Of a stretch of DNA of 64,000 nucleotides, positions 24,494 through 61,664 are shown piece after piece (position 1 is the first letter of the stretch; each line of letters opens with the position of its first letter). Both the position numbers and the translations under genes were made by a program. Source of the stretch: Escherichia phage vb_EcoM_bov9_1; the sequence record MT884006.2. One strand, 5' to 3'. The notes under the pieces are model-generated. The model did not search any database and was not told where the DNA came from. It saw only the letters and a list, made by a program, of their open reading frames with translations.

Positions 24494-24874
24494 TCACTTA
24501 GTCAAATTTTTTACGCATGAATTATAAGAATTCACTACATACTCCATCGGAGCATTTTTACCGGTACGCCATTGGTAATTATTAGCCCAATTAGCCCAAA
24601 TTTCGGCGCAGTAGTTTTCAATTTTTTCTTCGCGTGTAATTACATCAGAATTACGATATGCTTGAGCAGATTCATCTGGACGAATAGCTTCGTCAAAATT
24701 CGCCTGCATTTGTTCGACTGTTTGCTTTGGAGCTTCTTTATAACACTTGACATTAGGATTATAAAATTTGCTTGAACAGTTTACAATTTTTCCTACATCA
24801 GACTGATTTACTACTGGTCCTTGAGCTACACAGCCAGTAAGACCTAATGCAATAATCAAAATAGCGATTTTCAT
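24494..24874 (-). CDS. predicted lipoprotein
   Basis: 126-aa ORF, signal peptide with lipobox LTGC. Confidence 0.55.
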   Translation of the reverse strand: MKIAILIIALGLTGCVAQGPVVNQSDVGKIVNCSSKFYNPNVKCYKEAPKQTVEQMQANFDEAIRPDESAQAYRNSDVITREEKIENYCAEIWANWANNYQWRTGKNAPMEYVVNSYNSCVKNLTK

Positions 24875-24884
24875 AATAATTTCC

Positions 24885-25133
24885 TCAAATACAAGTAGTA
24901 ATTACTCCAGTAGTGCTTATGCAGGTATTACCCATTTGCACACCTAAAGATCCATTTGTATTCACATGAAGATTATCATCAATTTTAACTGATATTTTAC
25001 CATTAGTGTGAATAACAGTGCTAGATTCAATCACAGGTTGAGTATCATTTTCAACACTAACAAATGGAACTGCTGTTAATGCAACTAAACAAACTGCTAA
25101 GCATCCCATAACAATTTTCATTTTATTCTCCAA
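24885..25133 (-). CDS. predicted secreted or membrane-anchored small protein
   Basis: 82-aa ORF with N-terminal hydrophobic signal; begins MENKMK like two other genes. Confidence 0.5.
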   Translation of the reverse strand: MENKMKIVMGCLAVCLVALTAVPFVSVENDTQPVIESSTVIHTNGKISVKIDDNLHVNTNGSLGVQMGNTCISTTGVITTCI

Positions 25134-57271: not shown

Positions 57272-57313
57272 ATATACCCCTTTAGTTAGATAAACCTATT
57301 TATAACTTTTGCA

Positions 57314-57895
57314 CTAACCGAGCTTTTTAGTTAATTCATTCCAATGTTTTCTACACAAAGAAACATAAATTTCATCACCAATACAGATTTGATTACCTTC
57401 TTTAACTGGTGTTCCATCTTCCATTAATCGAGCTGTCATAATCGCTTTTTTACCACAATGACAAACTGCCTTTAGTTCAATAAGTTTATCTGCAATCGCT
57501 AAAAGTTCTTTAGAACCTTCAAATAATTTTCCAGCGAAATCAGTCCTTAGCCCATAAGCCATAACAGGAACATTATATGTATCAACAATTCGGCTCAATT
57601 GATGCACCTGTTCAGTTTTTAAAAACTGAGCTTCATCTACAAATACGCAATGAATATCTTTTTGTGCTTCAGCCCATTTATAGAACTCGAAAATATCCAT
57701 ATCATCTGTAATAATATTCGCTTCCTGCTTAATTCCAATGCGAGAAACGACTTCACAGACAGAATCGCGAGTATCAATAGCAGGCTTAAGAACTAATACA
57801 CTCATTCCACGTTCTTTATAATTATGTGCAGCAGTCAAAAGAGAAGCAGATTTTCCAGCATTCATTGCTGCATAAGTAAAAATTAAACTCGCCAT
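57314..57895 (-). CDS. tk: thymidine kinase
   Basis: 193-aa ORF; P-loop AAMNAGKS, C-terminal zinc-binding cysteines; size equals T4 Tk. Confidence 0.9.
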   Translation of the reverse strand: MASLIFTYAAMNAGKSASLLTAAHNYKERGMSVLVLKPAIDTRDSVCEVVSRIGIKQEANIITDDMDIFEFYKWAEAQKDIHCVFVDEAQFLKTEQVHQLSRIVDTYNVPVMAYGLRTDFAGKLFEGSKELLAIADKLIELKAVCHCGKKAIMTARLMEDGTPVKEGNQICIGDEIYVSLCRKHWNELTKKLG

Positions 57896-57904
57896 ATCAC
57901 CTTC

Positions 57905-58090
57905 TTAAAGCGTATTCACATAAGCTATTAATTCATTTTCTTTCTTATCAAACCGATCAGCAAATTCTTCCTGCTGTTCGGGAGATAGCGGGCCGTATTC
58001 ATCATAAAAGGTGTTTGCTTCTGTATGCTCATCTAGAAGTTCATGGATAAGCTCAAACAATTTATCTTTTTGTTCTTTGCTTAGACTCAC
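57905..58090 (-). CDS. hypothetical acidic protein
   Basis: 61-aa ORF. Confidence 0.4.
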   Translation of the reverse strand: MSLSKEQKDKLFELIHELLDEHTEANTFYDEYGPLSPEQQEEFADRFDKKENELIAYVNTL

Positions 58091-58259
58091 AGTATGTCAA
58101 TCCCCAAAAGTTTTAAAATGAATCGTTTCTGATTCATAACCGCTACGATTGAATGACCGTTAGGGTCTTTTTGACCCGATCCAATTATAAATCCTTTTTG
58201 TGCAGAAAGTTCAATCAAAACATCAAGTTCACGTAATAATTGATATTTTAAATCATCAT

Positions 58260-58472
58260 TCATTTTGGTTTACCTTCTTTAACGAAATCAGGATAAGGAT
58301 AAAATCCCGAATAAAATCCTTCACCTTTATGATTGATGCATCCTTTATTAGAACAATAGCACCAATAATCGAAATCACAAGCCATTTCATCGTTGCATAA
58401 AGCAAAAACAACCGGCCACTTACACTTTTCACAATGGGCATTTTTAAGAATACTAGTTTGGCTCATAACCAT
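58260..58472 (-). CDS. Cys-rich small protein
   Basis: 70-aa ORF with CEKCKW...CNDEMACDFDYWCYCSNKGC. Confidence 0.45.
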   Translation of the reverse strand: MVMSQTSILKNAHCEKCKWPVVFALCNDEMACDFDYWCYCSNKGCINHKGEGFYSGFYPYPDFVKEGKPK

Positions 58473-58690
58473 GTCACCTTTAAGCAGTATTCTTCTACAT
58501 GCTGTTTACGACCTTTCTTATCAATAAAGGTATATTCAACGAATGTTCCAATGTAGTCTTTATCTACATCATGTGGACTATTAATTGGACATTTAGTACG
58601 GCAAATGCGTTCCCATTGACGAATAATTACTGCCTTATTCTTTGGGTCATACTGATGTGGATAATGTATATTCATAATAACGGTTCCCAA
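58463..58690 (-). CDS. hypothetical protein
   Basis: 75-aa ORF. Confidence 0.4.
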   Translation of the reverse strand: MGTVIMNIHYPHQYDPKNKAVIIRQWERICRTKCPINSPHDVDKDYIGTFVEYTFIDKKGRKQHVEEYCLKVTWL

Positions 58691-59139
58691 TCAACAATCA
58701 CAATTTCTAATTTAGAGGAATATGTATCTAAAATCCCCTCAATAATATCCCAGTTCCCTTTACCTATGCCTGCACCAATCCTAGGCATATAGATTGTAGG
58801 TTTAATCAGTTTATTTTCACCAAACTCATTTAATTCTAACATACAATTCATTAAAGCGGAATACTCAAAATTTGGCCCCGGTTGAAATTGAGTATAAAGA
58901 TTGAAGCAGTAAGCTTTATGAGTCCTAAAGTATTTTTCATAGACTGAGTAAGAACCGAGTTTAGTTACATCGCCCCATTCTGTCTGTAATTTATCAGCTT
59001 CCAAAATTTTAGGGAAAGCTTTGGTTAATTGACCCGCTACGCCTGAACCCATAGTATGAAAACAATTGCATCCATGCGCAATATTTTTACCTTCAGCGAA
59101 AAGGGCGACAATATCGCCCTTGATATATTTTACAATCAT
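58672..59139 (-). CDS. macro-domain protein (ADP-ribose binding or processing)
   Basis: 155-aa ORF; GDIVALFAEGKNIAHGCNCFHTMGSGVAGQL resembles macro-domain signature. Confidence 0.55.
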   Translation of the reverse strand: MIVKYIKGDIVALFAEGKNIAHGCNCFHTMGSGVAGQLTKAFPKILEADKLQTEWGDVTKLGSYSVYEKYFRTHKAYCFNLYTQFQPGPNFEYSALMNCMLELNEFGENKLIKPTIYMPRIGAGIGKGNWDIIEGILDTYSSKLEIVIVDWEPLL

Positions 59140-59477
59140 CTAGTACTCAATCCTCGATTATAAGAATCTACCAAACGGTCAACCATTGAATGACAAGCGG
59201 CTTTATCTTTCTCCTCCGCAACTGAGCATTCTAAGGTATTCCACTTTTTAGCATATCGTTTTAACAATGTATCATTTTTGTATCTGCTTGATTTATCTCT
59301 TTCTCCGTCTTTATATGCATATATTAATTTCTGTGCAAATTCAGCTTGGCATGCTTTATTTTTCCCACAATAATCCGCTGCAGTACGGTTTACATACTCT
59401 CTAATTTCAGTATATGATGTATCTGCTAACGCAGAAAATGAAATTAATCCTATACATAAAACCAAAATTTTAGTCAT
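59136..59477 (-). CDS. predicted secreted protein
   Basis: 113-aa ORF with signal peptide MTKILVLCIGLISFSALA. Confidence 0.5.
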   Translation of the reverse strand: MTKILVLCIGLISFSALADTSYTEIREYVNRTAADYCGKNKACQAEFAQKLIYAYKDGERDKSSRYKNDTLLKRYAKKWNTLECSVAEEKDKAACHSMVDRLVDSYNRGLSTR

Positions 59478-60015
59478 TTACTATTTCCAAAAGTTTATTA
59501 TTTTTAAGGTAATTAGCCTTTTCTAGGACTTCAGAAGCATATTTAGAACCTGCTTTAACATTCCATCCCGAATTATAAGAGGATATTGCTTTTCTTATAT
59601 CGCCCTTATGTATATTTAACCAATAAGAAAGTTCAATGTACGCCCAGGAAGCTGAATTGGACCGTTTATTCAACATTCTTTTTATTTCAGCATCGGTCAT
59701 ATTATAACCAAGTTCCTTAACTCTTGCTCGCATAGTAGGCAAATAATTTTGGAACATTCCGTAGGCGTGATGCTTTGCTTTAGATTTTAAATTAACTCCG
59801 CCAGAGCTTTCTTGCCATAAAATAGCAGCCATTATATGACCCAATCCGCTCTTGTGGATATTTTTGTGTGTTTTATATTTTCCATCCTTAGAAAATTGTT
59901 CCCCGAATTGATACGCGTAACGCATGTTATCGAGTTGGACATTACTGAAAGTATGCTCGGAGCTATGTGCCATCATTGAAATGGCCAATAGACCAGCGAG
60001 TAGTGCTTTTCTCAT
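59470..60015 (-). CDS. lytic transglycosylase-like protein (SLT domain) with signal peptide
   Basis: 181-aa ORF; ILWQESSGG and AYGMFQ motifs typical of soluble lytic transglycosylases. Confidence 0.55.
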   Translation of the reverse strand: MRKALLAGLLAISMMAHSSEHTFSNVQLDNMRYAYQFGEQFSKDGKYKTHKNIHKSGLGHIMAAILWQESSGGVNLKSKAKHHAYGMFQNYLPTMRARVKELGYNMTDAEIKRMLNKRSNSASWAYIELSYWLNIHKGDIRKAISSYNSGWNVKAGSKYASEVLEKANYLKNNKLLEIVND

Positions 60016-60022
60016 GCTTACC

Positions 60023-60484
60023 TCATTGAGTTTTAATTACTGCTTTAGAAGCCTTTCCTGGTAAACGACGACTGTTGATAATTGCCATCCTGCATTGAAG
60101 TGACGGGTCTTTGAACTTCTCATTAGGCTTACAAACCGTAAATCCAAGCCAAAGATTTCCATCTGTGATTTCTAAACGTCCAGGACGATATTCAACCCCA
60201 TCAATAAAATCCTCGTCAATGTCAGGACGCGGAGGCATACTCAGGAATTCATTAACTTCTAAAACATGGTCTTTTATTTTATGGAATAATTCAAAAACAT
60301 ATGTCTCATCAATCTCCCGTTGAATTGCACGATCAAGAAGATGTTGAGAATATTTTAGATGAAACGATGAGACTCCTGCTGCTTTTGATGCCTCACGAAT
60401 CTCATTGTTAATTTGACGAAACTCCGACTCAAAGTGACGACGAAGCTTATTTCGACGGATAAAAACTTCTGTATTGATAGTCAT
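60023..60484 (-). CDS. regB: RegB endoribonuclease
   Basis: 153-aa ORF; size and position match T4 RegB. Confidence 0.75.
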   Translation of the reverse strand: MTINTEVFIRRNKLRRHFESEFRQINNEIREASKAAGVSSFHLKYSQHLLDRAIQREIDETYVFELFHKIKDHVLEVNEFLSMPPRPDIDEDFIDGVEYRPGRLEITDGNLWLGFTVCKPNEKFKDPSLQCRMAIINSRRLPGKASKAVIKTQ

Positions 60485-60511
60485 GTTGTTCTCCTCTTAA
60501 CTGATAGAAAA

Positions 60512-60541
60512 ATTATACCACAGCCAAGAGGAAAAGTAAAC
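60512..60541 (-). promoter_or_regulatory. T4-type early promoter
   Basis: minus-strand GTTTAC-18-TGgTATAAT upstream of regB. Confidence 0.6.
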
Positions 60542-61124: not shown

Positions 61125-61302
61125 CTAAACGAATAGGTTCATGAATGCCATATCCTTGAACAGAAATTTCTGTCGTAGGATAAATTCCATCAATATCACC
61201 CATATTCCAGGCTTCATTAAATTGCTGTTCGCCTGAATTACTAAACCACTCGGCGAAAGCATTTAGCACATCTTTAGAACCTTCAATAATTATCTTTGCC
61301 AT
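61081..61302 (-). CDS. hypothetical protein
   Basis: 73-aa ORF. Confidence 0.4.
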   Translation of the reverse strand: MAKIIIEGSKDVLNAFAEWFSNSGEQQFNEAWNMGDIDGIYPTTEISVQGYGIHEPIRLVEYDLCTGEEVKYD

Positions 61303-61664
61303 TACAAACTCTCGGTGAAGGTACGAGCAATAACGTCGCGCTGCTGTTCCGGAGTCAGAGAGTTAAAGCGAACTGCATAACCTGATACACGGATGGTCAG
61401 CTGCGGATATTTTTCCGGATGCTTAACTGCATCTTCCAGAGTTTCACGACGCAGAACGTTAACGTTCAGGTGTTGACCACCTTCAATTTTAACTGTAGGC
61501 TGTTGCTCAATTTCAATTTCACGGGCATGCAAACCGTAGAAAATTTCTGGGTCTACAAAAGAGTCCTCTTTAAAGGTTTTAGAGACAATAATTCGTGCTT
61601 GAATACCATCTTCAAAATAAATAGTACCTTTATGTGTGCCTTCAAGAATTTGATATGCTTTCAT
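61302..61664 (-). CDS. autonomous glycyl radical cofactor-like protein (GrcA/YfiD-like C-terminal module)
   Basis: 120-aa ORF; C-terminal about 60 aa ([61 protein letters not shown]) carries the RVSGY glycyl radical motif; DNA of this part is visibly more GC-rich than the surroundings. Confidence 0.8.

Follow-up and report, generated by a model that had tools for sequence, protein, structure and literature searches.

The tk–regB block of Escherichia phage vb_EcoM_bov9_1 carries the macrodomain gene tk.4 (adfM) and a conserved vs.1–vs pair with predicted exported products

The block of genes lying between tk and regB was analysed in a 64,000-nucleotide stretch of the genome of Escherichia phage vb_EcoM_bov9_1 (MT884006.2), hereafter the window. 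Three consecutive genes on its minus strand are the orthologues of the T4 early genes tk.4 (58672..59139), vs (59136..59477) and vs.1 (59470..60015), and these probably represent two functionally unrelated modules, namely a cytosolic counter-defence protein, Tk.4 or AdfM, and an exported envelope pair consisting of Vs.1 and Vs. The content of the locus is already known, with the macrodomain protein corresponding to AdfM and the soluble lytic transglycosylase (SLT)-like protein to Vs.1, and the predicted export of Vs together with its conserved coupling to Vs.1 is the only aspect that may be worth taking to the bench. An initial annotation, made from the letters of the window, had grouped a macrodomain protein, a secreted protein and a periplasmic lytic transglycosylase-like protein at this locus. 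The three open reading frames (ORFs) are indeed present at these positions between tk and regB, but their T4 names were missed and the macrodomain protein and the exported pair appear to belong to separate modules.

Tk.4 (AdfM) and its role against DarTG2

The tk.4 gene codes for a stand-alone macrodomain protein of 155 amino acids, which has no signal peptide and would be cytosolic, and which shares 100% amino acid identity with Tk.4 of T4 (ORF 60.5 of the 1986 sequence). A match of this protein to A1pp was reported as early as 2006 (PMC1524935). The macrodomain signature on which the initial annotation was based, HGCNCFHTMGSGVAGQL, covers residues 22–38, and the macro fold is backed by sequence and profile matches as well as by a published AlphaFold comparison. 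The Pfam Macro domain (PF01661) is matched across residues 22–132 with 27.7 bits (cut-off 22; E-value 2.9e-6), while direct sequence matches in the PDB comprise Bacteroides BT1257 (1.3e-9), yeast Poa1p, Streptomyces SCO6735, human TARG1 and the DarG macrodomains 5m31 and 5m3i, with BT1257 and Poa1p being the closest solved relatives by sequence. Comparison of the Tk.4 family with TARG1 by hhalign gave a probability of 96.7% (E-value 3.6e-10). The DarG models of NCBIfam (NF048014; 2.5e-7, positions 2–146 of 338) and PADLOC (1.3e-9, positions 2–145 of 329) are also matched. The NCBIfam match scores 30.3 bits against an equivalog cut-off of 250 and Tk.4 has no DarT-binding domain, so that the protein is DarG-like in its fold and genetics, and is not a member of the DarG family. 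When eight orthologues from six genera were aligned, three ADP-ribose-binding elements, H22-G-C-N25-C, M30-G-x-G-x-A35 and P119-x-I-G-x-G-I125, were found to be invariant. The roles of the conserved Asn and of the two Gly-rich phosphate loops are taken here to be those ascribed to macrodomains in general.

In a genome-wide transposon screen of T4 on a DarTG2-expressing host, tk.4 was the sole significant hit, and a clean T4 tk.4 knockout is DarTG2-sensitive, the gene being renamed adfM for anti-DarT factor Macrodomain (bioRxiv 10.1101/2025.11.20.689424). The connection with host defence made in the initial annotation thus agrees with the genetics of the identical T4 protein, which is required against the ADP-ribosylating DarTG2 system. 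A second proposal, that the protein is tied to the ADP-ribose marks written by the phage's own ModA and ModB enzymes, received no support from anything found here. The PhiKZ macrodomain, also called AdfM, strips ADP-ribose from DarT2-modified DNA in vitro (PMC13309987). In the proposed mechanism, Tk.4 would bind the ADP-ribose placed by the host toxin DarT2 on thymidines of single-stranded phage DNA and would cleave it off, so that replication is restored and DarTG2 defeated. The identity of Tk.4 as AdfM and its defence-related role can be stated with confidence, and we infer the enzymatic step from homology and from the in vitro work on the PhiKZ macrodomain.

Several observations weigh against a simple transfer of this mechanism. 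The T4 evidence concerning DarTG2 is genetic and comes from a preprint, and the role in the present phage would be carried over by protein identity. The catalytic K84 of TARG1, which is equated in the literature with K80 of DarG, aligns with an invariant Gln84 in the Tk.4 family, while TARG1 D125 aligns with Gly126 of Tk.4, where every family member has either Gly or Ala; PDB chains served to check the TARG1 sequence used. As the Lys and Asp of TARG1 are absent from Tk.4, hydrolysis by the DarG mechanism cannot be assumed. The replacement of the catalytic Lys by an invariant Gln suggests that the catalytic residues and chemistry of Tk.4 probably differ from those of TARG1 and DarG, and the protein may act by sequestering the modified site rather than by hydrolysis.

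With its sequence PRIGxGI[AG]GxW, the second phosphate loop follows the BT1257/SCO6735/Poa1p pattern. Together with the absence of the TARG1/DarG catalytic Lys, the position of BT1257 and Poa1p as nearest solved relatives, the RefSeq label "phosphatase" and the A1pp label, this loop favours a different function, in which Tk.4 is a housekeeping ADP-ribose-1''-phosphate phosphatase of the Poa1p kind that clears a tRNA-repair/NAD by-product, or reverses the protein ADP-ribosylation carried out by the phage Alt, ModA and ModB enzymes, and does not act on DNA. Such a function appears improbable given that tk.4 was the single significant match in the DarTG2 screen and was confirmed with a clean knockout, that the DarG profiles span the whole macrodomain, and that tk.4 mutants show no fitness cost when the defence system is absent. 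In the latter case the mean insertion counts given in HIDEN-SEQ table S8 are 289.6 in LB and 275.0 in M9 glucose (log2 fold change -0.07, not significant). The phosphatase and DNA de-ADP-ribosylation activities are, furthermore, not mutually exclusive.

Sharply differing tk.4 alleles were observed within the genus Tequatrovirus, where the window copy is 100% identical to that of T4 and those of HY01 and ECO07P3 are only 58% identical. This allele mosaicism fits an arms-race gene and is a pattern typical of counter-defence genes. The adfM allele of this field isolate is that of T4, many sister phages having the 58%-identical one instead, and this bears on the prediction of escape from DarTG2 hosts.

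Vs.1, a predicted exported SLT-like protein

The vs.1 gene codes for a predicted exported GH23 (glycoside hydrolase family 23)/SLT-like protein of 181 amino acids, whose fold class and likely periplasmic location are assigned with confidence. The signal peptide noted in the initial annotation is of the canonical Sec type (residues 1–18, MRKALLAGLLAISMMAHS then S; 59962..60015, minus strand), and is kept in type, though not in sequence, across the family. The SLT domain (PF01464) is matched across residues 61–154 with 25.4 bits (cut-off 21.3; E-value 1.1e-5), and the same domain is precomputed on many of the homologues. The SLT motifs named in the initial annotation, ESSGG and AYGMFQ, are found at residues 69–73 and 84–89, respectively. 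Among the 56 sequences aligned out of 77 homologues collected, E69 (in WQES), G86 and Q89 (in GMFQ) and Y147, N148 and G150 (in SYNxG) are invariant, and the segments E69-S70, G86-M-F-Q89 and S146-Y-N-S-G150 correspond to the three signature motifs of the family-1 lytic transglycosylases. The catalytic glutamate is thus kept in a protein whose predicted fold is GH23/SLT; this putative catalytic acid, Glu69, is read from the GAA codon at 59809..59811 (minus strand). The AlphaFold2 model of Vs.1 (predicted local distance difference test score, pLDDT, 88.4; predicted template modelling score, pTM, 0.82) was compared with the PDB using Foldseek, and the top 21 matches were all GH23 enzymes with an all-alpha, lysozyme-like fold, at probabilities of 0.5–1.0 (0.8–1.0 for the top 19). 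These matches include MltD, Ra-ChiC, Slt, LtgA, Slt70 and phi6 P5. The family motifs also line up with E478 (ARQES) and GLMQ of Slt70, but the pairwise hhalign comparison is non-significant (probability 0.6%, E-value 0.1) and the SLT assignment therefore rests on the Pfam match and the fold search. The resemblance of Vs.1 to SLT has been on record since 2003–2006, the 2006 paper (PMC1524935) itself pointing back to earlier PSI-BLAST work.

Other results temper this assignment. The Foldseek values are modest (E-values 0.013–0.7; template modelling scores 0.4–0.5), and searches of the PDB yielded no significant sequence match for Vs.1, even with the 56-sequence profile. Mutants of T4 in lysozyme e do not lyse, and Vs.1 is therefore not a bulk lysin. 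A literature search found no published assay of murein cleavage by Vs.1. Our best guess is that Vs.1, as an enzyme of the GH23/SLT type whose catalytic Glu is intact, would make limited cuts in the murein early in infection.

Homologues of Vs.1 are present in 2,036 phage records, including those of the genera Kuttervirus and Felixounavirus, whose homologues have likewise retained both signal peptide and motifs. The exported vs.1 homologue of Felixounavirus JH2 (L015, 791..2549) is located directly downstream of rIIA-rIIB and upstream of a polynucleotide kinase gene, with no vs, and in some records the Felix-O1-like homologue is labelled "putative lysin".

Vs, a small four-cysteine protein with a predicted signal peptide

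The middle gene codes for a protein of 113 amino acids that had been described in the initial annotation as secreted. This agrees with the presence of a canonical Sec-type signal peptide (residues 1–19, MTKILVLCIGLISFSALA then D; predicted at 59421..59477, minus strand), but the gene had not been recognised as vs, which is annotated as a valyl-tRNA synthetase (ValRS) modifier. The protein matches PHROG 1256 (5.2e-40), PF26829 (ValRS_modifier) is precomputed on all of its homologues, and it is 97% identical to Vs of T4, with a signal-peptide region two residues shorter. The N-terminal segment is poorly conserved in sequence and retains its architecture, with an N-terminal Lys or Arg, an uncharged hydrophobic run of 11–19 residues and a small-x-small site occurring in 36 of the 38 family members. 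Signal peptides were called with a simple heuristic (basic n-region, hydrophobic h-region and small-x-small site) rather than a trained predictor, and only seven of the 118 non-overlapping ORFs in the window passed this filter. These are Spackle (Sp) and rI, both known to be periplasmic, a lipobox protein, two membrane-anchor-like ORFs, Vs and Vs.1. The sequence evidence for the predicted export of Vs is strong. Elsewhere in the window, a lipobox-containing, lipoprotein-like ORF (MKIAILIIALGLTGC...; 24494..24874, minus strand; DUF5481, 1.7e-71) adjoins one coding for a 78 amino acid protein that has a hydrophobic N-terminal anchor and matches no family (24885..25121, minus strand).

Four cysteines, C37, C43, C84 and C95, are invariant in the family. 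The AlphaFold2 model of Vs (pLDDT 87 overall, above 95 for residues 20–110 and approximately 50 for the N-terminal segment) shows a bundle of four helices, spanning residues 20–37, 41–61, 68–84 and 89–110, in which each Cys pair is located at a hairpin turn. From these helix boundaries only, we infer the disulfide pairing. No informative structural relative was found in the fold search, nor was there any significant sequence match in the PDB. An exhaustive search of 1.84 billion representative proteins with the Vs profile gave eight matches, all of 50–119 amino acids, and among them no domain fusions or bacterial relatives; the family is confined to T4-like phages. The predicted mature protein has a mass of 10,933 Da and the precursor 12.9 kDa. 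The Vs factor of the 1970s literature was reportedly approximately 10 kDa, a size which the mature form fits better than does the precursor. There is no internal Met before M98 from which a cytoplasmic isoform could be started. An N-terminally His-tagged version of Vs is insoluble (PMC8076793).

Conservation of the vs.1–vs pair and fitness of mutants

The stop codon of vs.1 and the start of vs overlap by 8 nucleotides (ATGACTAA; 59470..59477, minus strand), which suggests that the two genes are translationally coupled. Eleven loci with a vs gene were examined, and each has vs.1 as the immediate upstream neighbour of vs, the two genes overlapping, abutting or standing a few bases apart. These loci were drawn from T4, the window phage, a Mosigvirus, two Dhakaviruses, a Mosugukvirus, a Klebsiella phage, a Gaprivervirus, a Krischvirus, an Acinetobacter phage of the Twarogvirinae and metagenomic contigs. 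The pair also occurs without regB or tk.4 nearby, namely in the Acinetobacter phage and in the metagenomic contigs; the conserved unit is vs.1–vs, independent of tk.4. In the Acinetobacter phage PhT2 (L013, 1980..3847) and a second locus (L011, 178..1983), the pair opens a five-gene run coding for exported or membrane proteins and ending in the antiholin gene rI. The two proteins encoded between vs and rI in these loci are exported or membrane proteins of approximately 140 and 100 amino acids, and neither has a Pfam match.

The fitness of T4 mutants in this region can be read from the mean insertion counts in LB and M9 glucose provided in HIDEN-SEQ table S8. For vs the counts are 26.6 in LB and 5.0 in M9 glucose (log2 fold change -2.19, adjusted p 0), and for vs.1 they are 22.6 and 11.9 (-0.87, p 0.0055, adjusted p 0.155). 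Among the neighbouring genes, regB has counts of 178.6 and 403.0 (1.17, p 0.049, adjusted p 0.80), vs.3 of 652.1 and 626.2 (-0.06, not significant) and vs.4 of 265.2 and 262.3 (-0.02, not significant). Mutants of vs and vs.1 therefore have in common an approximately ten-fold deficit in LB relative to their neighbours (179–652). Against a shared function it may be held that insertions in vs.1 could be harmful through polarity on vs.

Overlapping genes, two products that both appear exported and a small helical Cys-containing protein adjoining a glycosidase would also suit a toxin and its antidote, in which danger would come from Vs.1 as a murein hydrolase, and Vs, as its periplasmic inhibitor, would guard against premature lysis. 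T4 Spackle, a small protein that inhibits the gp5 lysozyme in the periplasm, offers a precedent for such control over a phage murein hydrolase, and the knockout of vs is harmful. The loss of a toxin should, however, be neutral, and the depletion of vs.1 mutants, which are as unfit in LB as those of vs, argues against this. In a natural variant (L009), moreover, a 100% identical Vs.1 is kept although vs is truncated and the next two genes are deleted, and Kuttervirus and Felixounavirus phages carry vs.1 homologues without an adjacent vs. On the basis of the HIDEN-SEQ counts and the natural vs deletion, this relationship was rejected and is regarded as quite improbable. The deletion in the variant spans approximately 800 bp, as seen when L009 (5520..5800) is compared with L010 (5520..6500), and removes two downstream exported genes along with part of vs. 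Homology of Vs to T4 Spackle was also considered and rejected (hhalign probability 0.7%).

Location and function of Vs

In the mechanism favoured here, Vs.1 and Vs would be made from the overlapping frames and both would most likely be exported to the periplasm by the Sec route, where Vs, as a small cysteine-stapled four-helix protein, would serve in the Vs.1 pathway as a partner or modulator and not as an antidote. We tentatively put forward that Vs is a Sec-exported, disulfide-stapled periplasmic protein with an envelope task shared with Vs.1, the two forming a conserved murein-remodelling module that matters most in slow-growing hosts or hosts in minimal medium. Its association with ValRS would then be secondary, through moonlighting or the precursor form, or would arise after lysis, or else vs has been misassigned to this ORF. 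This predicted export conflicts with the classical cytoplasmic role of Vs in relation to ValRS, as classical work reportedly has vs interacting in vivo with the cytoplasmic enzyme, and the four cysteines could bind a metal in the cytoplasm instead of forming disulfides. The binding of host ValRS by Vs is known only from biochemistry of the 1970s, as cited in PMC8076793, and a literature search found no discussion of the Vs signal peptide or of the conflict between export and ValRS binding.

The alternative is that Vs is solely a cytoplasmic, ValRS-binding factor of 10–13 kDa, with an N-terminus that is no working export signal, an adjacency to vs.1 that is a historical accident, and a minimal-medium defect that reflects aminoacylation under amino-acid limitation. 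Classical genetics reportedly connects vs with the ability to grow on valS(ts) hosts; in all T4-type genomes, in PHROG 1256 and in PF26829 the annotation is that of a ValRS modifier. Impairment of the vs knockout is specific to M9 glucose, a medium in which amino acids have to be made, and the four invariant cysteines could ligate a metal, as would suit a cytoplasmic protein. This explanation, too, is possible but doubtful, in that the signal-peptide architecture has been kept across the family while the sequence drifts, and the basic N-terminus and the acidic stretch following the hydrophobic run would place the helical domain outside the cytoplasm even if the signal were left uncleaved. The lack of a Met before M98 leaves no start for a cytoplasmic isoform, and the insolubility of the N-terminally tagged protein also speaks against a purely cytoplasmic factor. 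The gene is, in addition, always coupled to that of an exported enzyme, lying within a run of exported proteins in distant phages, and the 1986 T4 sequence record leaves the vs ORF (ORF 60.9) unnamed. Should Vs prove to be periplasmic, one of the oldest unexplained stories of host modification by T4 would need to be re-read, and an early-acting module directed at the envelope would be added to the T4 repertoire.

Genomic context and transcription

The region from 57300 to 60500 is 100% identical to that of Escherichia phage vb_EcoM_bov10K1 (MT884007.2; genus Tequatrovirus), and approximately 500 other T4-type genomes match it at 90–99%, with hundreds of Tequatrovirus genomes at 97–99%. This wide conservation indicates that tk.4, vs and vs.1 are real genes rather than chance ORFs, and their orthology and synteny with the T4 genes were read from the bov10K1 and T4 records. 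Every gene of the tk–regB block is on the minus strand. The endoribonuclease gene regB (60023..60484; Pfam REGB_T4, 8.1e-69) is the upstream neighbour of vs.1, and the stop of vs overlaps the start of tk.4 by four nucleotides (ATGA; 59136..59139). Downstream of tk.4 the gene order is tk.3, tk.2, tk.1 and tk, with tk (57314..57895) flanking the block. The tk.3 orthologue (58260..58472, minus strand), located directly downstream of the macrodomain block, codes for a small Cys-rich zinc-binding protein (Phage_zn_bind, PF23895, 2.6e-29).

Between tk.3 and tk.4 there is a small ORF (58463..58675, minus strand) coding for a DUF7202 protein of 70–75 amino acids (PF23832, 6e-37). This ORF does not occur at that position in T4 and is present in a Mosigvirus (RB32ORF111c) and in JS10, and would seem to be a small insertion/deletion polymorphism of the tk–regB block. 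The vs.6 orthologue (61302..61664, minus strand) is annotated as an autonomous glycyl-radical cofactor (GrcA-like), a spare part for damaged glycyl-radical enzyme, an assignment already made in a comparative paper of 2006 (PMC1524935).

The best match to a sigma-70-like promoter (TTTACT-17-TGnTATAAT; 10 of 12 positions, with an extended -10 element) is found at 60512..60540 on the minus strand, in the only sizeable intergenic gap and upstream of regB. A scan for minus-strand terminators found none between this match and tk. The site is probably the start of a regB–vs.1–vs–tk.4 early transcript, a call which is weak because the promoter/terminator scan gave no more matches in total for the region than for shuffled sequence.

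Comparison with known systems

Tk.4 of the window is the same protein as T4 Tk.4/AdfM, with the same neighbours and orientation, and the window differs in carrying the additional DUF7202 ORF. It has in common with DarG and human TARG1 the fold class and the ADP-ribose-binding loops, and the DarG profile matches cover the whole macrodomain. DarG, however, contains a C-terminal DarT-binding domain that is absent from Tk.4 with its 155 residues in total, and TARG1 has K84 and D125 where Tk.4 has Q84 and G/A126.

The exported pair can be compared with several well-described proteins. T4 Vs, or tau factor (PF26829, PHROG 1256), belongs to the same family as the window protein, but the predicted Sec signal peptide, the four cysteines and the periplasmic location that follows from them do not fit the cytoplasmic target described for it. 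T4 Spackle resembles Vs in kind, both being small, helical, Cys-containing early proteins that are exported (as predicted for Vs) and connected with a murein hydrolase, although there is no detectable homology between them and a role of Vs as inhibitor is disfavoured by the genetics. Vs.1 shares with the family-1 lytic transglycosylases and GH23 enzymes, represented by E. coli Slt70, Pseudomonas aeruginosa MltD and Slt and phage phi6 P5, the SLT domain, the ES, G-x-[MF]-Q and [AS]-Y-N-x-G motifs, the all-helical lysozyme-like fold and a periplasmic address, the latter being predicted for Vs.1. Unlike these enzymes, it is a very divergent single-domain protein with a mature part of 163 residues, and is neither a virion component nor an endolysin.

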